From Vulcanimicrobiota bacterium (GTDB lineage: Bacteria; Vulcanimicrobiota; Vulcanimicrobiia; Vulcanimicrobiales; Vulcanimicrobiaceae), in NCBI GenBank assembly GCA_963820825.1, contig CAWGBN010000009.1, positions 224,001 through 288,000 on the forward strand: DNA of 64,000 nt, in the 5' to 3' direction. The notes under the pieces were generated by a model. The model searched no databases. It was not told the origin of the DNA and worked only from the letters and a program-made list of their open reading frames with translations. The position numbers and the translations under genes were made by a program. Of the stretch, positions 30,354 to 52,774 are shown piece after piece. Position 1 is the first letter of the stretch; every line of letters begins with the position of its first letter.

Positions 30354-33300
30354 ATGAGAGTGCAACGAACGATCCGTTGCGCGACCGCAGCCGTTATGCT
30401 ACTAGGCATCTTCCTCTGCCAGGAAACTTGGGCACTGGCGGGAGTCACCGGTAACATCGCAGGCACCGTTCGCGACAACACCGGAGCCCCCGTTGCCGGC
30501 GCAAGCGTACAAGCAACCTCCGTCTCGCAGGTCGCCAAGACGACGACCGACGCGCACGGACACTTCGTATTGCTCGCACTCGTACCGGATACGTACACGA
30601 TCACCGTCGCCAAAGAAGGCTATCAGCCGACCTCGTTTCCGGGCAACTCGGTCTTTGCCGATCAGACCCAGCAGGTCGTCTTTACACTTGCGAAGACGCT
30701 CAAGACGATCGTGCGCGTCACCTCGCAGGCCGGCGCGTCGCTCGTAAAGTCCGGCGTCGGCGGCGACATCTACAGCGTCAATGCCGCGCAAGCGGCCGCA
30801 GCCGCGACGCTGGGCGGCGGCGGAAGCCTGCAAAGCGCCTATTCCGCAATGGCCTCGGTACCCGGCGTTCTCGTCGGTATCGGCCAGATGGGCTGGATGC
30901 AGCCGACCTTCATTCGCGGACAGAACACGTACTACACGGGCTTCGAGTACGACGGCATTCCCGTCAACCGGGCCTTCGACAATTACAACACCTCGACCGA
31001 ATCGAGTCTTGGCTTGCAAGAGCTGCAAGTCTACACCGGCGGCGGTCCCGCGTCGATCTCGACGTCGGGCACCTCGGGTTTCATCAATCAAGTGATCAAG
31101 ACCGGAACCTATCCGGGCTACGGAAGCTTTAGCGGAACGATCGGCACGCCGACCTTCTACCATCAAGCCGAAGTCGAAGCCGGCGGCTCGACGCCCGACC
31201 GGAACTTTTCCTATTACGTCGCGCTCTCCGGCTACAATCAAGCGTTCCGCTTTCTCGACAACCAGAACGGAACGAGCCTCGCCTCGATGCCCGGACCGGA
31301 GGCGCTCTACGCCGGCGGCGGCCCGATCAGCCAGGGCGTCACCGCGCTCTGCAACGACGTGACGGGTGCACCGCCCGCGGTCTATAGCCAAATGCCGTGG
31401 GGCAACGGCGGGTGCTTCATCGGCCTCAGCGGTATCGCCGCGGTCGTGAACCTCATCACCGACCGCGAAAACATCATCAACCTGCACTTCGGCATCCCGC
31501 AGAAGAACGGGCTGCGCGACGACATTCAGGCGCTCTGGAGCGCCTCCGCGCTCAATACCTACAACTACGACACGCCGTCGCAGCTCGGCGTCTATCCCTA
31601 CACCTTGATCAACACGGGGTTGCCGTATTGCACGAACCAGGCCGGATGCACCGGCGGCGTCTACGGCAGCGGAAAGTATCCGTATAATCCCGGCGTGCCG
31701 TGGCTCGACAGCATCGTCTACAACAAGCCGTTCGGCACGTCGATCGCATCGAGTCCGACGAGCATTACCCCACCGAACAACTACTACTTTCCGTCGAGCC
31801 CGTCGAATCGGGCCCTCTTCGCGCCGGCTCCGCTCAATGCGGGAACGACGCTCAACAACGATACCGGCATCGAAAAGCTCCAGTACACGCATGCGTTGAG
31901 CAGCAGCGCCTATCTACGGGTCTTCGGCTATTCGTTCTACTCGGATTGGCTGATCAACTCGCCCGAAGCACTCGCCTTGGCACAAGGCGCATACGACTAC
32001 GAGCTCGATACGCACACCGCCGGCGGCGAGCTCCAGTTCTCGGACCAAATTACCGACAAGAATCTGCTCACCTTCACGACCAACTATACGACTGCGAACG
32101 TGATGCGATTCAACAACGGCACCGTCGGCGCGGTCTCGCCGATCGGGTACTGGTCGGGATCGGGCTCGTCGATGACCTGCCGCAATCCATCGAGCGGCAG
32201 CACCGTGCCCTGCTCGCCGAGCAGCTATTGGGATACCGCAAGCGGCGGCCTCGTCAATCCATCCTGCGCGAGCGCGTATCCCTCGGCAGCATGCTGGACG
32301 AGCAACGCGGCGAGCGGACCGACCGGCTTCGCGCCGGGGTCGAAAGCGACGTGGAACACGCTGTGGTCGGGCGAGGTTACCGGTTCGCTGAACACCGTGC
32401 TTCCCAAATTCACGTCGGTCTCGCTTACCGACCAGTTCAGACCGAGCGACAAGTTCATGCTCGACGGGGGCATCCGTTTCGACAACTACACATACGACCT
32501 GCCCACCTCGGCGAATCCGGCGACGGAATTCTACGCAAACGTCATGGCAAACTACACCTGCTACAACGTCTTGACGCACCAGCTCTTGACCGAACCCATC
32601 ACCCCGTCGCTCGCTCCGCCGATTCCGCCTCCGCCCTTCTACGTCAACGGTGACTGCAACACGGCGGTCGATCAATCCGAGCAGACCAGCGGCGTTAAGG
32701 GATGGGTGCATCCCAATGGAAAGACCCAGGACGGTTTCGCGGCGCCGAGGTTTACCGCGAACTCGCCGAACTCGTACGGCCTTAGCTACTGGTCGCCACG
32801 CATCTCCGGCACGTACACGCAATCGCCCGACACCGTCTGGCGCGCGTCGGCAGGGCGTTTCGTACAGCCGCCGCTCTCGGCCTCGGTCCAATATCTATCG
32901 GCAAGCGGCGACAACCGAAGCGTCTGGGCGTCGAGTATGAATCTCGGGTACTTCACCCCGTTTCATCCGATCCCGGGCATCTCGTCGGGTCAGTACGACC
33001 TCTCGCTGGAGCGTCACATTCGCGGAACGGATTGGAGCTTCAAACTAACGCCGTTCTTCTCCGACGTAACGAACTGGCAGACGCAGGTCTTCATCGGACG
33101 CGGATTCGTTACGCAGATCCCGTACGGCGAAGCGGAGAATATGGGCGCCGAGTTTCAGATCAGCAAAGGCGACTTCAGCCGCAACGGCTGGTCGGGCCAA
33201 GCCTCCGTCACCTATACGAATGCGATCGTGCAGTTCCAAGGACTGGGCGGCGCGCCGAACCAGATCTCCGTGCTCAATAACGCCGTCAGCTACTTCAACG

Positions 33301-34166
33301 CGCTGACCAAGGCGGGGGGAGGCTCTCCGTGCTACACGCCCGCAAACGCCACGACCGGCAAGTTCGGCCGCGGAACGACGCACTGCGGGTCGGGATCGGC
33401 GAACATCCTCAATCCGTACTACAACATGTCGCCGCAGCCGTTGGAGAGCCAGTCGGCGTGGTACCCGGTTCCGAACATCGGCGTCGGCCCGAGTCTGAAC
33501 TACATTCCGAACCTCTATCAAGCTCCGTGGGTCACCAGCTTGCTCCTCAACTACCGTCACAACGGGTTGGCGATAACGCCGAGCCTTCAGTTCGACTCGG
33601 GATCGCGCTACGGCGAACCGATGGACATCATCGGCGTCGATCCGCGCTCCTGCGCGGCGAACTCGCTGACGAGCAAGGTCCCGGGAGCCGGCGTCTCGTT
33701 CCCGGCGACGCAGTGCAACTACACCAGCGCGATCGCGCCCGGCGCGAGTCCGTACGGGTACCTCTACATACCGAATCCACAGACCGGCACGTTCGCCAAC
33801 TTCGGCCAATACGTGGCCCCGAGCATCATCGTCGGAAATATCTCGCTGAGTTACGACCTCAATCCCAAGATCCGCTTGCAGGTAACGGCGACGAACCTCT
33901 TCCACGACTGCTTCGGCGGCTCGGTGGAACCATGGACGCGCGCCTATCCGGCGGGCGGGAATGTCTGCAGTTACATCCCGCAAGGAAATAACTTCGACAA
34001 CCTCTACGTCTCGAATTTCTACAACGGCACCGGCCCGAACGATAAAAAGGCCAACGGCATCACTCCACAGCCGTGGCAACTCCAATCGTACGGTCCCGGA
34101 AACGGGCTCTTCAACGTCATCCCGCCACCGCTCAACATCTACCTCGGACTGCAACTCAAGATCTAA
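30354..34166 (+). CDS. TonB-dependent receptor-like outer membrane protein with N-terminal carboxypeptidase-regulatory-like domain
   Basis: Signal peptide; GTVRD..GAPVAGASV; plug YDGIPVN and SGFINQVIKTG; SPRISGTY; amphipathic terminal strand YLGLQLKI. Confidence 0.85.
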   Translation: MRVQRTIRCATAAVMLLGIFLCQETWALAGVTGNIAGTVRDNTGAPVAGASVQATSVSQVAKTTTDAHGHFVLLALVPDTYTITVAKEGYQPTSFPGNSVFADQTQQVVFTLAKTLKTIVRVTSQAGASLVKSGVGGDIYSVNAAQAAAAATLGGGGSLQSAYSAMASVPGVLVGIGQMGWMQPTFIRGQNTYYTGFEYDGIPVNRAFDNYNTSTESSLGLQELQVYTGGGPASISTSGTSGFINQVIKTGTYPGYGSFSGTIGTPTFYHQAEVEAGGSTPDRNFSYYVALSGYNQAFRFLDNQNGTSLASMPGPEALYAGGGPISQGVTALCNDVTGAPPAVYSQMPWGNGGCFIGLSGIAAVVNLITDRENIINLHFGIPQKNGLRDDIQALWSASALNTYNYDTPSQLGVYPYTLINTGLPYCTNQAGCTGGVYGSGKYPYNPGVPWLDSIVYNKPFGTSIASSPTSITPPNNYYFPSSPSNRALFAPAPLNAGTTLNNDTGIEKLQYTHALSSSAYLRVFGYSFYSDWLINSPEALALAQGAYDYELDTHTAGGELQFSDQITDKNLLTFTTNYTTANVMRFNNGTVGAVSPIGYWSGSGSSMTCRNPSSGSTVPCSPSSYWDTASGGLVNPSCASAYPSAACWTSNAASGPTGFAPGSKATWNTLWSGEVTGSLNTVLPKFTSVSLTDQFRPSDKFMLDGGIRFDNYTYDLPTSANPATEFYANVMANYTCYNVLTHQLLTEPITPSLAPPIPPPPFYVNGDCNTAVDQSEQTSGVKGWVHPNGKTQDGFAAPRFTANSPNSYGLSYWSPRISGTYTQSPDTVWRASAGRFVQPPLSASVQYLSASGDNRSVWASSMNLGYFTPFHPIPGISSGQYDLSLERHIRGTDWSFKLTPFFSDVTNWQTQVFIGRGFVTQIPYGEAENMGAEFQISKGDFSRNGWSGQASVTYTNAIVQFQGLGGAPNQISVLNNAVSYFNALTKAGGGSPCYTPANATTGKFGRGTTHCGSGSANILNPYYNMSPQPLESQSAWYPVPNIGVGPSLNYIPNLYQAPWVTSLLLNYRHNGLAITPSLQFDSGSRYGEPMDIIGVDPRSCAANSLTSKVPGAGVSFPATQCNYTSAIAPGASPYGYLYIPNPQTGTFANFGQYVAPSIIVGNISLSYDLNPKIRLQVTATNLFHDCFGGSVEPWTRAYPAGGNVCSYIPQGNNFDNLYVSNFYNGTGPNDKKANGITPQPWQLQSYGPGNGLFNVIPPPLNIYLGLQLKI

Positions 34167-42770: not shown

Positions 42771-43538
42771 TTGCGCATTCTCATCACCAACGACGACGGA
42801 ATCGATTCGCCGGGAATCCACGCGCTCGTCGACGCGCTAGTCGCCGATCACGCGTTGATCGTCGTCGCGCCGTCGGGAAACCGCAGCGGCGTCTCCCACG
42901 CGATCACTGCCGATGAGGCGATCACGATCGAGCGCCGGCACGACGCCTCCGTTCCATCATATGCATGCTCCGGAACGCCGGCCGACTGTGTCTTTCTCGG
43001 TTCGACCGAGCTCGCGTCGCGTTCTGAGCTGGTCGTCAGCGGAATCAACCATGGGCCGAACCTTGCCGATGACGTCAACTACTCCGGAACCGTCGCCGGC
43101 GCCGTGGAGGCGTCGCTCCTGGGCATTCCCGCGCTCGCGGTCTCACTCGCGTCGAATCACGAAGACCCGGCCGGCCGCCGCTACTGGGAGAGCGCCGCGG
43201 AGATCGTGCGGCGTTGCGTCGAAACGGCCTACGCGAACCTGCGCGACGGAGCTTCTTACTGGAACCTGAACGTTCCGAATCTGCCGCTCGATTCGATTGC
43301 CGGCATCGCCGTGACGCGGCTCGGGCGCAAACGGATCTGCGGGCGGATCGTCGGCCAAGAACACGACGGGGCGATTCGTTACTATCGTGCTTGGGAGTCG
43401 CCGTTCGAGACGGATCGCGAAACGCTCGGCACCGATATCGGCGCCGTACACGCCGGCTATGCCAGCTTGACGCCGCTCTTGCTCGATCGCACCGCGGAGT
43501 CGGGACTCGACGCCTTGCCGGCGCTGACCATGCGGTAG
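42771..43538 (+). CDS. surE: 5'/3'-nucleotidase SurE
   Basis: ILITNDDG, GTPADCV, SGINHGPN, YSGTV. Confidence 0.93.
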   Translation: MRILITNDDGIDSPGIHALVDALVADHALIVVAPSGNRSGVSHAITADEAITIERRHDASVPSYACSGTPADCVFLGSTELASRSELVVSGINHGPNLADDVNYSGTVAGAVEASLLGIPALAVSLASNHEDPAGRRYWESAAEIVRRCVETAYANLRDGASYWNLNVPNLPLDSIAGIAVTRLGRKRICGRIVGQEHDGAIRYYRAWESPFETDRETLGTDIGAVHAGYASLTPLLLDRTAESGLDALPALTMR

Positions 43539-44386
43539 CGCTTGGGCAATCGCCGGCCCGCGATCTCGGCGACGGGTCCCAACCGATGCATAAGCTGTTC
43601 GAACTCCGCGCAGTTGAGCGACTGCGCTCCATCCGATAGCGCGTTTGCCGGATCCGGATGCACCTCGATCAAGAGTCCGTGCGCGCCCGCCGCGATGCTC
43701 GCAACCGCGATCGACGGAACCAGGCGCGCGATTCCGACGGCGTGCGACGGGTCGACGACCACCGGAAGATGGGTCATCTCTTCGAGCAACGGAACCACCG
43801 AGATGTCGAGAACGTTGCGCGTCGCCACGTCGAACGAGCGCACGCCGCGCTCGCAGAGCACGACGCCGTCGTTGCCTCCGAGCAGGATATATTCGGCGGC
43901 CAGCAGCCACTCTTGAACCGTCGCCGATAATCCGCGTTTGAGAAGCACCGGGGTGCGCGCGGCGCCAACCTCACGCAAGAGCGGAAAGTTCTGCATGTTG
44001 CGCGCGCCGATTTGGAGCATATCGGCGTAGCCCATCACCATCTCGACGTCGCGCGGATCCAGGACCTCGGTCACGACGCCCAACCCGTACCGGTCTCCCG
44101 CGTCGCGCAGCAGCTTGAGCGCCTCTTCGCCGAGGCCTTGAAACGAGTACGGCGAGGTACGCGGCTTGAATGCGCCGCCGCGCAGCACGTTTGCGCCGGC
44201 TGCGGCGACGGCACGCGCGGCGGCTTCGAGTTGCTCGGCCGATTCGACGCCGCACGGACCCGCGCAGATCGCAACCTCGTCGCCGCCAAACGTCGCACCG
44301 TTGCGAAGCCGCACGACCGTCCGCTCGGCCCGTGCGTCGCGACGGACCAGCCGATACGATTGCGGCACGTTGACGCCTCGCTCCAT
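43457..44386 (-). CDS. aroF: DAHP synthase class I-beta lacking an N-terminal regulatory domain
   Basis: AGPC, GGAFKPRTSPYSFQG, QIGARNMQN, LLKRG, CERG, DPSH, EVHP, SDG. Start at 44386 or GTG 44368. Confidence 0.92.
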   Translation of the reverse strand: MERGVNVPQSYRLVRRDARAERTVVRLRNGATFGGDEVAICAGPCGVESAEQLEAAARAVAAAGANVLRGGAFKPRTSPYSFQGLGEEALKLLRDAGDRYGLGVVTEVLDPRDVEMVMGYADMLQIGARNMQNFPLLREVGAARTPVLLKRGLSATVQEWLLAAEYILLGGNDGVVLCERGVRSFDVATRNVLDISVVPLLEEMTHLPVVVDPSHAVGIARLVPSIAVASIAAGAHGLLIEVHPDPANALSDGAQSLNCAEFEQLMHRLGPVAEIAGRRLPKRYRMVSAGKASSPDSAVRSSKSGVKLA

Positions 44387-44459
44387 GCGGCCCGCTTCGA
44401 CGCCTCGCAAGGGCTTCATCCTGCTGCTCGCGGCAGGCCGCAAGCGTGGCGCTGCATGA

Positions 44460-45681
44460 ATGAGAATGCCAATGGAGCACGTGGCCGTTACGGGGCTGGG
44501 GATCGTTTCGCCGATCGGCAGCACCACCGAATCGTTTTGGCGCCATTTGCTCGCAGGAAGGCTCGCGATCGCTCCGATGGGCGGCCGCGAGCGTCTCACG
44601 GGCAACGGCTTCTGGGCCGCCGTGGGCGACGACTTTCTTCACGCGAGCGCGCTGCCGCGCGCCGCGTTGCGCAACACCGACCGTTTCACGCAGTACGCGA
44701 TGGTCGCAACGCACGAGGCGCTCGCGCAGGCGGCACTCGATCTGCCGGCCGATTCGACGGCGGTGATTCTGGGCAACACGATGGGCGGCTTTCCGTTCGT
44801 CGCCGAATCGCAGACGCGGTTTCTGGACGCGGCGCGCAACGTCACGCCGAAACTCATGGCCCTGGTCATCCCGAACATGGCGAGCGCGCGCATCGCGATG
44901 CATTGGGGAGTTCACGGCCCGCAGCTCGCAATCAGCACCGGCCTGCGCCTCGTCGCTCGATGCGATCGGCCTCGCAGCGGGAATGATCGAACGCGGCGAG
45001 ATCGAGGCGGCGATCGCCGGCGGGAGCGAGACGCTGCTCAGCCCGCTCGTTTACGAGAGCCTCGTCCGCGCCGGCGCGCTTTCGCGCAATCCCGACCCCA
45101 CCGGCGCCTCGCGCCCGTTCGACGTCGATCGCGACGGTTTCGTGATGGGAGACGGAGCCGGTATCGTGATTCTCGAGCGCAGCGAACGCGCGCGAGCGCG
45201 TGGCGCCGCGATCCTCGCCCGAGTTCGGGGATATGGTTCGCGCGCGGATGCTTACCACATCACCTCACCCGAACCGTCGGCTCGCTACGAGGTGCGCGCG
45301 ATGCGCGACGCGATCGAAACCGCCGGCGACGCCGGCGCGGCCTGCCGCGTCGTCTACGCGCACGCCACCGGCACGATCGTCGGCGACGCCGCCGAATCGA
45401 AGGCGATCGATGCCGTCTACGCCCAGCAGCCCGCGATCGTGACCTCGATCAAGGGGCACCTCGGACATAGCATGGCGAGCGCCGGCGTGATGTGCGCGAT
45501 CGCCGGCATCAAGGGGATGCACGAAGGCTGGATTCCACCGACGCTGGGAACGCAACGCGTCGATTCGAAGACGCGCTTCGATCTCGTGCTGCGGGAGCCG
45601 CGTGCGGAATCGTACTCCGCCTTTCAAGTCAACGCGTTCGGATTCGGCGGACAGAACGCGTCGCTGATTCTCTCGCGATGA
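44460..45681 (+). CDS. Beta-ketoacyl synthase (FabF-like), frameshift near 44940
   Basis: VAVTGLG, IPNMA; removing one G restores STACASS (catalytic Cys); SRPFD..RDGFVMG, AHATGT, KGHLGH, FGFGGQN. Confidence 0.88.
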
Positions 45682-45748
45682 CGCCGAGCAGGGCGCTTTC
45701 AACCGCACTAGGAAGGTTCCGGGCGGTTTCTACCGAGGTGCGACGCCG

Positions 45749-48700
45749 ATGAATCTTTTCGTGAAAGGCACGAGCGGGCCGTTGACCGGTGAGGTGCTGG
45801 TCCCGAACTCAAAATATCACGCGCACCGCGCGTTGATCCTGGCCTCGCTCGCGCCGGGAACGAGCCGGATACTCGGCCTCTCCGACGCTCGACACGTGCA
45901 GTACACGATGGACGTACTGCGCGCGCTCGGCACGAAGATCGAGGTCGACCAAGATACCTTGCTCGTCACCGGCGGTCGCTACCACGTCAAGCGCAAGGTC
46001 GTCTCCGTCGGCAGTTCCGGCTCGACCCTCTACTTTATGATCGGATTGGCCGCGCTCGCCGACGCGCCGATCACCTTGACGGCACAGAAGTACTTCCGCC
46101 GCCGTCCCGTCGGGCCGCTGTTGGAAGCGTTGGCGGCGATGGGCGTGCGATTCGAGTCGGCAGACGGCTGTCCGCCGATCGCGGTTCAGCCCGGAGACCG
46201 CGCGGCGGCACGATCGTCATCCCGGGGATGCTCTCGCAGTGGATCTCCGGCCTGCTGCTGCTCGCGCCGTTTGCGACGGAGCCGACCGTCATCGAAGTCG
46301 AAGGCGAGCTCAACGAGCGCCCGTACATCGCGCTCACCATCGCGATGATGCGCACCTTCGACTTGCAGGTGCGCATGGCGCCGAATTGGCGCCGGTTCGA
46401 GATCGAACCGGGACAGCAGGCACGGCCGGCGACCGTCGAGCTTCCGCCCGACATCGGCTCGGCCGCGTTCGGCCTCGCCGTCACCGCGATCCATCCGTCG
46501 AACGTGCTCTTTCGCGGCTTGCACCAGCTCCCCGGAGAGCTGCCCGACCATCCCGAGGGCGCGTTCATGGAGATCGTTGCCGAGATGGGCTTGCCGATGA
46601 GCTACGATGCGCACGAGAAGGCCGTACGCGTGAAGCACGACGGCATCGAGCTTCGCGGTATGCGCGTCGATTGCCGCGACATTCCCGACATGCTTCCGAT
46701 TCTCTCGACCCTCGGCACCTTTGCAAAGGGGGAGACCGTCCTGGAGAACATCGCGCACGTCCGGCTCAAGGAATCCGATCGCGTCGCCGCGATGCTGCAG
46801 CTCAATCTCATGGGCGGAGATCTCGAGCTGCACGACGACCGGCTCGTCGCACGCGGCGTTTCGAAACTCTTCGGAGCGCGGCTCTCCTCCTTCAACGATC
46901 ATCGAATTGCTGATGTCACTGGCGGTGGCCGCGTCGCGCGCCGAAGGATCGAGCACGCTCACCTATCCCAACGCATACCGCATCTCCTATCCGCGCTTTC
47001 TCGAAGCGATGCGCAGCATCGGCGTGCCGATGTCGATCGCCAAGGTCCCCGCGAGCGGAGAGGTCACCGCACCGAAGGCGGCCCGGCCGATGCTCAAACC
47101 CGATCGCGCGGCCGAGATGACGCTCGACGAGCTGCTTCGCCGCCTCGCGCGCGAGCGGCCGCTCGAACTCGCGGTCGTCGAGACGCGCGACGAAACCGAT
47201 GCGGCGCTGACCTGGCAAGAGCTGCTCGATCGCGTCGAACGCACCGCGATGTTTCTGTTCGATCTCGGCGTGCGTCCGGGCGAGTGCGTCGCTTATCAGC
47301 TCCCCAACTGCATCGAGTTCGTCGTGATCTCGCTGGCTGCGCTGCGGATCGGCGCGATCTGCTGTCCGCTGATGCCGATCTTCCGCGAGCGCGAGATGGC
47401 CTTCTGCCTGCGCCGTTCCGGGGCGCGCGTTCTCGTCGTGCCCGACGAGGCGCGCGGCCGCCATCCCGCCGGCGAGATTGCGTCGCTGTTGAGCGAGGCT
47501 TCGATCTTCAGCGGCGCGCTTCCATTGCGCCTCGAGCACGTCATCGTCTCGGCGAGCGGGCGCCGCGCCCATCCGTTACCGGCGGCCGATAATGCGAACG
47601 GCAGCGTGAACTGGATTCGTCTCGAAGATGCGCTCAAAACCGTCAGCGTGGATGCGCAAGCGCTCGACGCGCGGCGCGTCAAACCGGCCGCGCTCGCGCA
47701 GCTCCTCTTCACCTCGGGAACCTCGGGCGAACCGAAAGGCGTTCTCCATCGCAACGACGTGCTGATGCGCGCCGCCGCAATGGAGGTCGAGCACCTCGGG
47801 CTCAACGCGGAGGACCGCGTCTTCGTCCCCTCCCCGCTCGCCCATCAGACCGGTTTTCTCTACGGCATGTGGCTGGCGATCGTCATGGGCGTCCCCCAGA
47901 TCGTGCAACCGATTTGGAACGCGCCTCGCGCGTTGCGCGCGCTCAACGATTGGGACGGAACGTTCGTTCAGGCGGCGACGCCGTTCTTGGCCGATATGGT
48001 AAAGGCCGTCGAGGATGGCGCGCTGCCGCCCGCGGCCCTGCGGATATTCGTCGCGACGGGCGCGGCGGTGCCGCGCGGACTCGCCGAGCGCGCGACGCGC
48101 ATTCTCGGCACCGCCGTCTGCGGCGCGTGGGGAACGACCGAATCGTGCCTCGGCTCGCTCTCGGCGCCGGGCGATGAGGCCGCAAAGGTCTGGGGGACCG
48201 ACGGCCGCGCGCTGCGCGGAATTCGTTTGCGCATCACCGATTCCGAGGGCCGCATCTTATCGCCGGGCGCGGAAGGACACTTCGAGATCTTCTCGCCGAC
48301 GATGTTCGAGGGTTACGCCGATCACCCCGAGTGGACGGCGGCAGCCTATACGCCCGACGGGTGGTTTCGCACCGGCGATCTCGGCGCGATCGACGAATCG
48401 GGATACATCCGCATCACCGGCCGCGTTCGCGACGTGATCAATCGCGGCGGCGAGAAGATTCCCGTCGCCGAGGTCGAGCAGCTCCTGAGCGACCATCCGG
48501 CAGTCGCGCAAATCGCAATCGTTGCGATGCCCGATCCGCGCTTAGGCGAGCGCGCCTGCGCGTTCGTCGTCTTGCGGCGCGGTGCGACGCTCGATTTTGA
48601 CCGGATGCAGCATTATCTCGACGCCTGTCAAGTCGCCAAGCAGTACTGGCCCGAGCGGCTCGAAATCGTCGGCGAACTCCCGAGAACGCCCTCGGGGAAG

Positions 48701-48775
48701 GTGCAGAAGTACGTACTGCGCGAGCGCGCCCGTGAGATGCGGCCGCACGAGCGCGTGAAGGAAGCGATATCGTGA
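45749..48775 (+). CDS. EPSP-synthase-like/acyl-CoA ligase fusion (AnsJK/PlmJK-like), ~1008 aa, two compensating indels
   Basis: AroA fold: PNSKYHAHRAL, RRPVGPL, LSQWISG, KESDR, DHR, SYPRF. This runs without a stop into an ANL domain: FTSGTSGEPKG, WGTTE, WFRTGD, RGGEKI, PSGKVQK. Indels near 46197 and 46908. Confidence 0.85.
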
Positions 48776-49944
48776 AGCAACTCGACCGCGCAGCGTTCGA
48801 CGAGGCCGCGTTTGCCGCATTGAAGGAGGAGATCGCGGCATACGTTGCCGGTCCCGGCGAAACGTGGGCCGCCCGCATCGAGCGCGAGCGCCGCGTGCCG
48901 CCGGAGCTCTGGGAAGACCTGCGTGCGCGTGGATATCTCTCGCTCGCCGCGCCCGAAGCCTATAGAGGGCGCGGCATTCCCTTCACCCGCTTTCTCGAGC
49001 TGATCGAGCTCTTTTCGATGTCGCACGCGTCGATCCGAATGATCGTCCACGTCGTCAACGGCACGTGGCGAGCGATGGACCGATTCGCGACGCAGGAGCA
49101 GCGCCGACAATTCGTAGTTCCCTCGGTTCAAGGCGCGGTGAAGATCGCATTTACGCTCACCGAACCGACCGCCGGGACCGGCGCCGACCTTCGCTGCAGC
49201 GTCGTGCGCGAAGGTGATACCTATTACCTGAGCGGCGAGAAACACCTCATCACCTTCGGAACCATCTGCGATTACTGGCTGCTCTTCGCGCGGCTCGCCG
49301 GTACGCGCGGCGCCGAGGGAACCGTCGCGCTCCTCGTCGACCGGAACTCGCCCGGTGCGACAGTCGTCGAGATGGACGAATCGATGGGCGTGCGCGGAAC
49401 CGACCACGCCCGCTTGCATTTCGACCGCACGCCGGTTCCCGTTGCCAATCGCCTCGGCGACGAAGGCGAAGGGTTGGCAATTGCGCTCGGCGGATTTCTG
49501 ACGCCCAGCCGCATCTCCGTCGCGATGAGCTGCGTCGGTTTGGCGCGGCGCGCGCACGAGCTTGCGGTGGCCTATGCCGGCAAGCGCGAGACCTTCGGCA
49601 AGAAGCTCGAAGCGCGGCAAGCGATTCGATTCATGATCGCCGAGAATGCGACCGATATCGAGGCGGCGCGCCAACTCGTGTTACACGCCGCGCGCCAATG
49701 GGAGAGCGGAACTCCCGACGCGCCGATGCTCTCCTCGATGTCGAAGCTTCAAGCCGTCGACATGCTCACCCGCGTCACCGACAAGGCGCTGCAGATTCAC
49801 GGCGGCATCGGCTTCTGGCAGCCCAACGCCATCGAGCGCGTCTATCGCGACGCGCGGGCGCAACGCTTCGAAGAGGGCACGAACGAAATCCAAAAGACCG
49901 TCATCGCGCGAGCGCTTCTCGGAAGCGCGGGAGGCGGAGCATGA
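48772..49944 (+). CDS. Acyl-CoA dehydrogenase family protein (AnsL/PlmL-like)
   Basis: [43 protein letters not shown] overlap with the upstream gene. Confidence 0.9.
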
Positions 49945-50747
49945 GCCGCCGGTTCGAGAACAAGGTCTCGCTCATCACCGGCAGTTCGCGCGGGATCGGC
50001 CGGGCGCTCGCCTTGACGCTTGCGCGCGAGGGCGCCTCGGTCGTCGTTAACTACGTGCGCAACGCCGATCTCGCGGCACAAACCGTCCGCGATATCGAGG
50101 CGCTCGGCACGCGGGCAATCGCCGTGCAGGCGAATATGGAGACGGTCGAGGAGATCGATCTGCTCTTCGACGCGGTCGAAGCGGAGTTCGGCCGGCTCGA
50201 TCATTTCGTCTCGAACGCCGCGGCCAGTTCGTTCAAGAAGATCCTCGACCTCAAAGCGAACAATCTCGATCGCTCGTTCGATCTGAACGTTCGCGCCTTC
50301 GTCCTCGGCGCGCAGAGGGCCGTCAAGCTGATGAAGGACGGCGGACGCATCGCCGTACTTTCGAGCTATGGAAGCATTCGCGCCTATCCCACCTATGCGA
50401 ATCTCGGCTCGAACAAGGCGGCGGTCGAAGCATTCGTGCGGTACATGGCCGTCGAGTTCGCGCCGCGCGGCATCAACGTCAACGCGATCAACGGCGGGCT
50501 TATCGACACCGAATCCTGCGCCTACTTCTACGAGCGGGTTGCGGGGATGGCACCGATCGAGTCGGTGCTCTCCAAGGTCCCCAAAGGGCGCATGGGCACG
50601 ACGCAAGAGGTCGCCGACACGATCGCGTTCCTGCTCGCTCCCGAGTCGGAGTACATCACCGGTCAGACGATCTGCGTCGACGGCGGCTTGAGCGTTATCG
50701 CGCCGCCGTTTTACTCCGATACCTCGCCGCCCCTCTCGCTGACGTAG
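49941..50747 (+). CDS. chcA: 1-cyclohexenylcarbonyl-CoA reductase-like SDR
   Basis: [57 protein letters not shown]. Closely matches my recollection of Streptomyces ChcA, and the gene position agrees. Confidence 0.8.
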
Positions 50748-50755
50748 CCGCGCTG

Positions 50756-52774
50756 GTGTTCGAACACGCGCTCGCGGCGGGTTCGATCGGCTCGCTGCGA
50801 CTTCGCAATCGCATCGTGATGGGCTCGATGCATTTGGGCATCGAGCGAGACGGCGCGGCGCTGGCCGCCTTTTACGCCGAGCGCGCGCGAGGCGGCGCGG
50901 GCTTGATCGTCACCGGCGGCTCGTCGGTCAGCCGGGTCGGCGCAGGCGGGCGCAACTACAGCTTCATCAACGATCCGCAGAGCGCCGCCCCGCTGCGCCA
51001 AGCCGTAACGGCCGTGCACGAAGCGGACGGGCGAATTGCGTTGCAGCTCTTTCATGCCGGCCGTTACGCGCTCTACGCATCGTTCGGATTGCAGCCGGTC
51101 GCGCCGTCGGCGATTCCATCGCGCTTCTCCCCCGATCCGCCGCACGCGCTGAGCGACGAAGAGATTCACGAAACGATCGGCGATTTTGCGCGCGGGGCGG
51201 CGCGCGCGCGCGAGCTCGGCTTTGACGCGGTTGAAGTGATGGCTTCCGAGGGCTATCTCCTCAACGAGTTTCTCTCGCCGCTCACCAACCGCCGCGACGA
51301 CGCCTGGGGCGGCGACTTGCAACGGCGCATGCGCCTGCCGCGCGAGGTCTTAGCCGCGATCCGCGCGAGCGCCGGCGCCGATCTTCCCGTCATCTTCCGA
51401 ATCTCCGGTGCCGACCTAATGCCCGACTCGACGAGCCCGGGCGAGACGCTCGATTTTGCGCGCGCGCTCGCCGCGGACGGCGTCGACGCGCTCAACGTCG
51501 GCATCGGCTGGCACGAGTCGGCCATTCCTACCGTCCAGCATCTCGTCCCCAGCGGCGTCTGGGTCCGGTACGCGGCTGCAGTCAAAGCTGCCGTCGGCAG
51601 CGTTCCGGTGATCGCCAGCAATCGCATCAACTCGCTCGCCGCCGCGCAAGCCGTACTCGCCGCGGGGAGCGTCGACTTCGTCTCGATGGCGCGTCCGTTT
51701 CTCGCCGACGCGCAGATCGTTGCCAAGGCGGCGCGCAACGAATCGCAGCTCGTCGACACGTGCATCGCCTGCAATCAGGCATGCATCGATCTCTCGCTGC
51801 TCGATGCGCCGGTCTCGTGCATGGTCAATCCTCGCGCCGGCCGCGAACTCGAGTTCCCCGAACCCGGCAGCGCGCCGGAGCGGCCGCGCCGGTTTGCCGT
51901 GATCGGCGGCGGGCCGGCCGGAATGGAGAGCGCGCGCGCCCTCGCCGCGCTCGGGCATCGCGTCGAACTCTTTGAAGCGCAAGGCGAGCTCGGCGGCCAG
52001 TTTCGAATGGCACGGCGCATCCCCGGCAAGCGTGACTTCGGCGAGACGATTCGTTACTTCACCAACGAACTCGCTCGACTCGGCGTGGTGGTGCATTTCG
52101 ATTGCCGGCTTCGCGACGCGAGCGCACTGCGCGCGTTCGATGCCGTTGTCCTCGCGTCGGGAGTGCTGCCGCGGCGAGTCGCGCTTGAAGGAAGCACGCT
52201 TCCGCACGTCGTTTCGTATGCCGACGTCCTATCGAACGGTTGCGCGGTCGGCGAACGCGTTGCCATCGTCGGCGCGGGCGGAATCGGCGCCGACGTCGCG
52301 CATTTCTTGAGTTTCGGAGAGGTAAACGTCGACGAGACGACGCGCTTCCTTTACGAACAGGGATTGGCGGCGCCGGCGGACGGCGCGCTGCTGGTGACCG
52401 GACGCAAGCGCGTTGCGCTGATGCGCCGCGGACCGACCATCGGTGAAGGCATCGGCAAAACGACGCGCTGGGCCGTCGTCCGCGCGTTACGCGCCGCGGG
52501 AGTCGAGGCGCTGCCGAACGTCGCGTACGAAGCGATCGTTCCGGGCGGCATTCGCGTGCGAGCCGCCGACGGTTCGTCGCGAACGATTCCCGCGGATACG
52601 GTCGTGATCGCGGCGGGTCAGGAACGAAACGACGCGCTGCTCGAACCAATCCGCGCGCTCGGGGTTCCGTATCGCGTCGTCGGCGGCGCGCGAGAGGCGA
52701 TCGAACTCAACGCCGTGCGCGCATTCGAAGAGGGTCTGCGCGCCGCGTACGAGCTCGCACGCTTCGTCTCCTAA
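50756..52774 (+). CDS. 2,4-dienoyl-CoA reductase (FadH-type; AnsM/PlmM-like)
   Basis: NRIVMGSMH, EGYLLNEF, GIGWHE, CIACNQACID Fe-S motif, GGGPAG, GKTTRW. Confidence 0.92.
   Translation: MFEHALAAGSIGSLRLRNRIVMGSMHLGIERDGAALAAFYAERARGGAGLIVTGGSSVSRVGAGGRNYSFINDPQSAAPLRQAVTAVHEADGRIALQLFHAGRYALYASFGLQPVAPSAIPSRFSPDPPHALSDEEIHETIGDFARGAARARELGFDAVEVMASEGYLLNEFLSPLTNRRDDAWGGDLQRRMRLPREVLAAIRASAGADLPVIFRISGADLMPDSTSPGETLDFARALAADGVDALNVGIGWHESAIPTVQHLVPSGVWVRYAAAVKAAVGSVPVIASNRINSLAAAQAVLAAGSVDFVSMARPFLADAQIVAKAARNESQLVDTCIACNQACIDLSLLDAPVSCMVNPRAGRELEFPEPGSAPERPRRFAVIGGGPAGMESARALAALGHRVELFEAQGELGGQFRMARRIPGKRDFGETIRYFTNELARLGVVVHFDCRLRDASALRAFDAVVLASGVLPRRVALEGSTLPHVVSYADVLSNGCAVGERVAIVGAGGIGADVAHFLSFGEVNVDETTRFLYEQGLAAPADGALLVTGRKRVALMRRGPTIGEGIGKTTRWAVVRALRAAGVEALPNVAYEAIVPGGIRVRAADGSSRTIPADTVVIAAGQERNDALLEPIRALGVPYRVVGGAREAIELNAVRAFEEGLRAAYELARFVS

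Follow-up and report, generated by a model that had tools for sequence, protein, structure and literature searches.

The conversion of shikimate to a cyclohexane ring is known from actinobacterial antibiotic clusters, where phoslactomycin-type clusters carry the genes in the order plm2-3 (lmB), plmJK, plmL, chcA, plmM, plmR1, plmR2 (Table 2 of PMC5852498) and where MycA1-A4 of the myc (ansatrienin) cluster are described as making the cyclohexanecarboxyl (CHC) moiety from shikimate (PMC13304725). Outside antibiotics, Alicyclobacillus acidocaldarius is reported to hold about 51% C17 and 33% C19 cyclohexyl fatty acids (PMC3035248). Here we describe a CHC-CoA cassette, headed by a ketosynthase (KS) and lying beside the gene for a 3-deoxy-7-phosphoheptulonate (DAHP) synthase, in a Vulcanimicrobiota genome (G000; contig CAWGBN010000009.1, positions 224,001 to 288,000, a stretch of 64,000 nucleotides referred to below as the window). 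The ring pathway itself is known, while the host, the genus-wide fixation of the cassette and a KS with methionine at position 108 (Met108) are new. We take AsuB1-B4 to be the corresponding set of the asukamycin cluster.

To place the locus, we compared its genes with cassettes recognized by their cluster surroundings. The six genes stand in the order and orientation that the initial annotation had claimed, with the DAHP synthase on the minus strand and the KS, a fusion of an AroA-like domain to an acyl-CoA ligase, an acyl-CoA-dehydrogenase-fold protein, a short-chain dehydrogenase/reductase (SDR) and a FadH-like reductase following on the plus strand. The last four genes share their order, the fused AroA-like/ligase gene and 51-66% identity with the plm/pnP1-P4/lmP1-P4 and MycA1-A4 type of cassette in phoslactomycin- and ansatrienin-like clusters, so that the plmJK-plmL-chcA-plmM identity first proposed holds and, judging from sequence, the four core genes are almost certainly a CHC-CoA cassette. 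What tempers this assignment is that the reference cassettes were identified by cluster layout and not by named Plm, Ans or Asu accessions, and orthology therefore rests on that layout because no experimentally named sequence entered the comparison. At L115 the four homologues (51-66%) come right after a type I polyketide synthase (PKS) and before two large divergent open reading frames (ORFs), the first of them a LuxR-type ATPase regulator, which matches the plm order of PMC5852498 and therefore marks a phoslactomycin-like context. At L105, L109 and L220 the cassette lies beside a 3-amino-5-hydroxybenzoate (AHBA)-synthase-like aminotransferase, AroQ, a nonribosomal peptide synthetase (NRPS) and a thioesterase, a layout that the myc cluster has as well (PMC13304725).

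Individual proteins gave the same picture. The window SDR is 65% identical to that of the ansatrienin-like L105 cluster, groups in the tree with ansatrienin- and phoslactomycin-context SDRs apart from FabL-like paralogues, and scores 267 bits on the FabL model NF005975 against a cut-off of 328, compared with 245 and 243 for the ansatrienin- and phoslactomycin-context SDRs and 372 for a FabL-like paralogue from L255. The PlmL-type protein is 65-72% identical to actinobacterial cassette genes and 53% to an A. acidoterrestris protein, and the FadH-like protein reaches 49-58% with the equally placed gene of most actinobacterial cassettes. A concatenated four-gene tree of 32 loci joined the Eremiobacterota and actinobacterial cassettes against those of Bacillota (SH-aLRT 100). 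An actinobacterial donor was considered, as the SDR tree nests the Cybelea sequences there, but that node stays open in the four-gene tree and the topology test does not reject monophyly of the actinobacterial cassettes (p-AU 0.42), and for these reasons we name no donor. No ChcA or PlmJK chain was present among the solved structures listed. By analogy with known orthologues, the ligase domain would form shikimoyl-CoA, the dehydrogenase-fold protein would remove ring hydroxyls by dehydration, and the FadH-like and ChcA reductases would saturate the double bonds.

We next evaluated how widely the cassette is spread. The lineage had initially been called Eremiobacterota-like, which agrees with the nearest named loci belonging to Ca. 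Cybelea (phylum Eremiobacterota/Vulcanimicrobiota). The ligase was present in 24/24 Cybelea genomes searched; in a set of 400 genomes from the phylum, 77/79 Cybelea genomes had the AroA-like domain, versus 3/321 of the others; and the KS occurred in 56 of the 59 high-quality Cybelea genomes, each of which also encodes a separate FabF at 36-42% identity. A synteny survey started from 78 non-Streptomyces loci, of which 18 on short contigs were dropped, and 58 of the 60 judged held the DAHP synthase, KS, AroA-like, ligase, dehydrogenase, SDR and FadH genes in the same order. This gene order is not due to chance, and the cassette is fixed genus-wide in Ca. Cybelea, although the counts represent one fixed acquisition rather than many independent ones because the genomes are kin. 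Compared with the plm and myc clusters, the Cybelea operon has no modular PKS or NRPS and no LuxR-type regulators, carries a FabF paralogue at its head, and sits in a housekeeping region beside a native aroF, fixed across the genus. Losses were also seen: G204, the sole genome of the 59 with PKS modules, has neither AroA-like domain nor KS nor PlmL-type gene, while G060 (C4, L311) is missing the last two. In genus g2 the cassette is found in two genomes, and three others (G026, G027 and G028; L302-L304) keep only the KS, two of them together with half a FadH gene. Single metagenome-assembled genomes labelled Chitinophagales, Rhodanobacteraceae and Opitutaceae also hold the cassette (L172, L232, L236, L238; binning as labelled).

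The adjoining DAHP synthase had been likened to plmI, a pathway gene of the phoslactomycin cluster, and here our results point elsewhere. It is the only PF00793 gene in 26/26 genomes (class I; class II DAHP synthases were not searched) and falls in the native Eremiobacterota clade of its tree, and is therefore the genome's own sole housekeeping enzyme rather than a plmI-like booster brought in with the cassette. The idea that it shed its regulatory domain to feed the cassette was likewise rejected, as cassette-less relatives (L316, L322, L325, L327) are equally truncated. In g2 the cassette is located elsewhere, without an adjoining DAHP synthase. In Cybelea the native enzyme next door would supply shikimate for both the cassette and the aromatic amino acids. 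The gene diverges from the operon across a gap of roughly 70 nt, over which shared control is possible; a promoter scan of 43400-46000 returned no sigma-70-like site. At its other end the DAHP synthase gene overlaps surE tail to tail by 82 nt (43457-43538). The single PF00793 match per genome also means that no KdsA (Kdo-8-phosphate synthase) was found in the 26 genomes, yet the lineage is reported as Gram-negative and the window encodes a TonB-dependent receptor (30354-34166).

Cassettes outside PKS clusters also occur in Microbacteriaceae and other Actinomycetota. Gryllotalpicola, Humibacter, Frondihabitans, Microlunatus, Acidothermus and the S. albus group carry stand-alone cassettes with the same four-gene order, joined in Acidothermus and many Streptomyces by a FabF paralogue; unlike the Cybelea KS, this actinobacterial KS follows the cassette, falls in a clade of its own and mostly shows Val108. 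Gryllotalpicola and Humibacter are cyclohexyl-C17:0 producers, for which our searches found no confirming paper. In Arthrobacter (L143-L160, L217, L237, L248) the cassette is split, with fusion, PlmL and FadH genes at one site and SDR, ligase and KS genes at another. Loci of Streptomyces, Kitasatospora and Lentzea (L077, L078, L096, L097, L099, L104, L127) combine the cassette with an N-acetyltransferase-type amide synthase, two FabH and an acyl carrier protein (ACP); no modular PKS was seen within 20 kb of these, making them candidates for orphan cyclohexyl-acyl amides.

Alicyclobacillus offers a comparison on the lipid side; its lipid chemistry is known, and its locus was located here by homology. 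The candidate omega-cyclohexyl locus (L253-L270; L173, L175) holds ligase, PlmL-type and DAHP synthase genes divergent from genes for FadH, SDR, ACP, a second ligase, a second dehydrogenase and a Zn-dehydrogenase; a thioesterase, a FabL-like SDR and a FabF with Phe108 are frequently close by. It shares with Cybelea homologous ligase, PlmL-type, FadH-like and SDR genes (42-55%) and a linked DAHP synthase, but differs in belonging to another clade, in its divergent layout, in the extra ACP, second ligase, second dehydrogenase and Zn-dehydrogenase, and in having an AroA-like domain at only 4/18 loci. A FabF paralogue lies nearby in 5/18 loci, and although the Bacillota-linked KS is likewise bulky at residue 108, the Alicyclobacillus-linked KS is not orthologous to that of Cybelea (36-39%). 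With species sorted as cyclohexane, cycloheptane or none by Table 1 of PMC5023266, the PlmL-type gene was found, among the matches listed, in at least 9/12 cyclohexane, at least 1/5 cycloheptane and 0/5 'none' Alicyclobacillus species, counts that come from listed or motif-bound matches, in which misses are not absences. The gene was further present in 26/45 unnamed Alicyclobacillaceae genomes. Among the papers listed for the pathway genes, from a collection thin in subscription journals, none described this locus or a cassette-linked KS.

The KS that heads the Cybelea operon retains the Cys-His-His triad and F400 gate of FabF, is 38% identical to the housekeeping FabF on contig C6 and scores below the FabF model TIGR03150 (353 versus a cut-off of 494 bits). 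Its back gate reads Thr107/Met108 where FabF has Gly107-Ile108, the housekeeping FabF of Cybelea having Ile108. Residue 108 was Met in 86/86 Eremiobacterota-type rows (from overlapping loci that are not independent), Phe in 5/5 Bacillota-linked KS and Val in most actinobacterial linked KS, and a quick tree placed the Cybelea-, Bacillota- and Actinomycetota-linked KS in three separate clades. I108F is described as limiting FabF to C6-C8 chains and I108M as penalizing longer chains in simulation (PMC9006962; bioRxiv 10.64898/2026.02.26.708327), and the Met108 back gate thus suggests a KS that may work on short cyclohexyl primers. Three observations pull the other way. Met in the mitochondrial KS still allows long chains, with a bimodal profile (PMC9006962); G026, G027, G028 and four more distant genomes retain the KS, again with Met, although the ring genes are gone, so that it may have another job; and in two Microbacteriaceae, G. 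ginsengisoli and Humibacter sp., the cassette is accompanied by a single FabF, so that a dedicated KS is not needed.

To assess where the product goes, we looked for enzymes that could take it up. The absence of a PKS or NRPS partner, proposed from the window, holds in most Cybelea genomes: NRPS condensation domains occurred in 4/59 high-quality genomes and KS domains in long frames, indicative of modular PKS, in 1/59, namely the cassette-less G204. As such assembly lines are rare, a fatty-acid product is the most likely, and fatty-acid synthesis or a type III PKS are the consumers left; we consider it probable that the cassette product enters fatty-acyl chains, a reading that the match between gene and lipid type among the Alicyclobacillus species listed also favours. 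One stand-alone ACP was found in each of 5 near-complete genomes, and FabH (frameshifted), ACP and housekeeping FabF were found in the genome studied here. CHC-CoA would start a chain carried by the lone stand-alone ACP. The operon KS, its acyl tunnel narrowed by Met108, would handle the initial condensations on this short and bulky primer, and elongation to about C17/C19 would fall to the housekeeping FabF (Ile108).

Whether a cyclohexyl fatty acid is a major membrane lipid is a separate matter, on which we lean slightly towards doubt. In S. nodosus, CHC-CoA made by the asukamycin cluster does enter fatty acids, with cyclohexyl chains at 3.1% (PMC4147253). Several observations count against the fatty-acid reading: our literature search found no lipid data for any Cybelea; the cultured Gram-negative relative V. 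alpinum has iso-C14:0 and hydroxy acids (PMC9758169, a profile with which cassette content was not compared); and A. tengchongensis (L258), listed as cycloheptane, has the genes in the A. hesperidum layout. Paenibacillus, Cohnella and Arthrobacter species harbour the cassette too. These are ordinary branched-chain (anteiso-C15:0) organisms, and together with the low level in S. nodosus they mean that cassette genes do not imply a major lipid.

The alternative that survives best is that CHC-CoA goes mainly to a specialized lipid or small molecule and hardly to the bulk membrane, most plausibly by way of the genus-wide type III PKS and its methyltransferase-like neighbour, which would yield alkylresorcinols or pyrones with cyclohexyl tails. 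PF00195 is present in 60/60 Cybelea genomes and in 1/5 other genera of the family; a methyltransferase-like ORF follows the type III PKS in L338 (read by eye), the short-pocket KS could supply short cyclohexyl acyl chains, and the cassette is nearer to actinobacterial secondary-metabolite versions (51-72%) than to those of Alicyclobacillus (42-55%). The type III PKS gene is nevertheless unlinked to the operon and is kept in G204 and G060, which have no working cassette, and we regard this route as unlikely to be the main one. Type III PKS enzymes draw starters from the fatty-acid pool, so this possibility would mostly extend entry into fatty-acyl chains rather than replace it. In other genomes, a carrier-protein domain forms part of an open frame some 630-655 aa long (3/5 genomes: G146, G128, G057), and G022 holds a large NRPS cluster (C1:1.22-1.27 Mb).

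Evaluating the copy in the window further (Table 1), we found that parts of the initial gene reading needed revision. The DAHP synthase start, placed at 44605, was corrected to about 44386. The run had been called mostly translationally coupled, which fits two of the four plus-strand junctions that overlap (48772-48775 and 49941-49944) and not the others, one with an 8-nt gap and the KS-to-fusion junction with a 67-nt gap. Three single-base frameshifts had also been overlooked, which in this assembly split the KS over two frames and the AroA-like/ligase gene over three.

Table 1. Genes of the cassette locus (window coordinates) and the type III PKS gene of the same genome.
Feature	Coordinates	Strand	Supporting observations
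AroF-type DAHP synthase, class I-beta, 309 aa, without N-terminal regulatory domain	43457..44386	-	PF00793, TIGR01361 above cut-off
FabF-paralogue ketosynthase (KS)	44460..45681	+	PF00109 + PF02801 in two frames; frameshift near 44940
PlmJK-type fusion, AroA-like + acyl-CoA ligase (putative shikimoyl-CoA synthetase)	45749..48775	+	PF00275 (two frames), PF00501/PF13193; frameshifts near 46191, 46909
PlmL-type acyl-CoA-dehydrogenase-fold flavoprotein (putative FAD-dependent dehydratase)	48772..49944	+	PF00441/02770/02771
ChcA-type SDR (putative 1-cyclohexenylcarbonyl-CoA reductase)	49941..50747	+	SDR tree; below FabL cut-off
PlmM-type FadH-like flavin/Fe-S reductase (putative dienoyl-CoA reductase)	50756..52774	+	PF00724 + PF07992
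Type III PKS, then methyltransferase-like ORF	G000:C7:320103-321188 (L337)		

DNA alignment with 5 relatives located an extra base in the KS two codons before the catalytic Cys, and in the fusion a missing base at the first site and an extra base at the second, none of which is present in any of the five; the relative locus L001 encodes an intact 405-aa KS and 1008-aa fusion. One could therefore suppose that the operon is a recent pseudogene in this one genome, though working elsewhere in the genus. Three indels in 9.1 kb exceed the roughly 0.9 expected (Poisson P about 0.06, high but compatible with background), which is a point against an intact operon, and real decay does exist in G060 (no KS, no PlmL-type gene) and in G026-G028. 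However, all three indels are single-base and the pieces between them carry no in-frame stops, dN/dS of the cassette pieces (0.05-0.25) resembles that of flanking genes (0.08-0.17), and FabH (G000, C2:13.5 kb) and other core genes of this genome are broken likewise. Frameshifts affected 5/49 and 9/81 genes in comparisons with two relatives, or 0.09-0.11 per kb, from two gene sets that overlap and in which a few rows may be shadow ORFs. The cassette genes are under purifying selection, and with relatives intact, a background of about 0.1 per kb and low dN/dS, the three frameshifts are most likely assembly errors; we judge recent decay of this copy to be quite improbable.

Compared with solved AroA (E. 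coli numbering), the AroA-like domain of the fusion keeps K22, R27, R124, Q171, D313, K340, E341, R344 and R386, and it has Y in place of S23, a gap or L in place of S169, E for S197, H for N336 and I for K411. The replaced residues are presumably the shikimate-3-phosphate pocket of 5-enolpyruvylshikimate-3-phosphate (EPSP) synthase, and because they are changed the domain is unlikely to be an ordinary EPSP synthase, even though it still passes TIGR01356 (305 versus a cut-off of 287). A canonical AroA was not found in this 85% complete assembly, and relatives own a further PF00275 gene of about 430 aa (from match count and frame length). The notion that Cybelea lacks canonical AroA and makes shikimate only for lipid was ruled out by at least three PF00275 matches in 40/40 high-quality relatives and aroC in 41/41. 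No AroA-like domain was found in the genomes searched of five Alicyclobacillus producers (hesperidum, fastidiosus, sacchari, acidiphilus, sendaiensis), whose motif-read loci were MurA or canonical AroA, with 0/15 close to the AroA-like domain.

The unexplained role of the AroA-like domain leaves some room for a ring that is only partly reduced or otherwise different, giving a cyclohexenyl or hydroxylated primer, the more so as those Alicyclobacillus producers manage without the domain and own an extra ACP, ligase, dehydrogenase and Zn-dehydrogenase missing from Cybelea loci. We consider such a primer very unlikely, given that the four genes match the Streptomyces set MycA1-A4 and its described CHC product. 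Least credible of all is that the operon degrades cyclohexane carboxylate by an AliA/AliB/Bad-type route instead of making it, for although the best NCBIfam match of the related ligase is the cyclohexanecarboxylate-CoA ligase model TIGR03208 (462 bits) and JGI gives many homologues that name, the ligase scores well short of the AliA threshold (792 for TIGR03208) and so does the dehydrogenase on the AliB model (144 versus 575), no BadI exceeded its cut-off in 5/5 near-complete genomes (best 142 versus 468), and the AroA-like fusion and the KS heading the operon fit synthesis.

With synthesis of CHC-CoA preferred, its possible benefit to the host can be considered. Cyclohexyl lipids have been linked to heat and acid resistance (PMC5023266, PMC10562698), and are also described as not essential and as occurring in organisms neither thermophilic nor acidophilic (PMC5023266). 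A role in acid tolerance is conceivable but rather doubtful, and one in heat tolerance, to which nothing here points, is highly improbable. The most far-reaching proposal is that omega-cyclohexyl fatty acids are a main lipid and a defining trait of Cybelea as a widespread outer-membrane-bearing soil genus, that the Met108 KS is a dedicated loader of primer from CHC-CoA in place of FabH, a solution separately reached (Phe108) by the Alicyclobacillus/Scopulibacillus-linked KS, and that the classic Alicyclobacillus producers either need no AroA-like domain or have something in its stead; taken together, we offer this tentatively, as something that may well prove wrong. If true, a lipid known from Gram-positive thermoacidophiles and from some Actinomycetota would characterize a whole genus of uncultured diderm soil bacteria. 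It could then mark Cybelea chemically in lipids extracted from soil, and caution would be due before a cyclohexyl fatty acid is taken to indicate Alicyclobacillus or heat. No paper on cyclohexyl lipids in Eremiobacterota, Vulcanimicrobiota, WPS-2 or Cybelea appeared among the matches listed, in which subscription journals are thinly covered. The ring chemistry is established, which limits the surprise. Beyond pointing to a candidate Alicyclobacillus locus, the comparison raises questions of enzymology, namely the job of the AroA-like domain given producers without one and the loading of bulky primers by back-gate-narrowed FabF paralogues, and a compact operon with its own KS could serve the engineering of cyclohexyl lipids or CHC-primed polyketides.

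Elsewhere in the window, FolK (HPPK) and FolE2 domains share one open frame on the minus strand, from 39223 to about 40640, as an apparent fusion.

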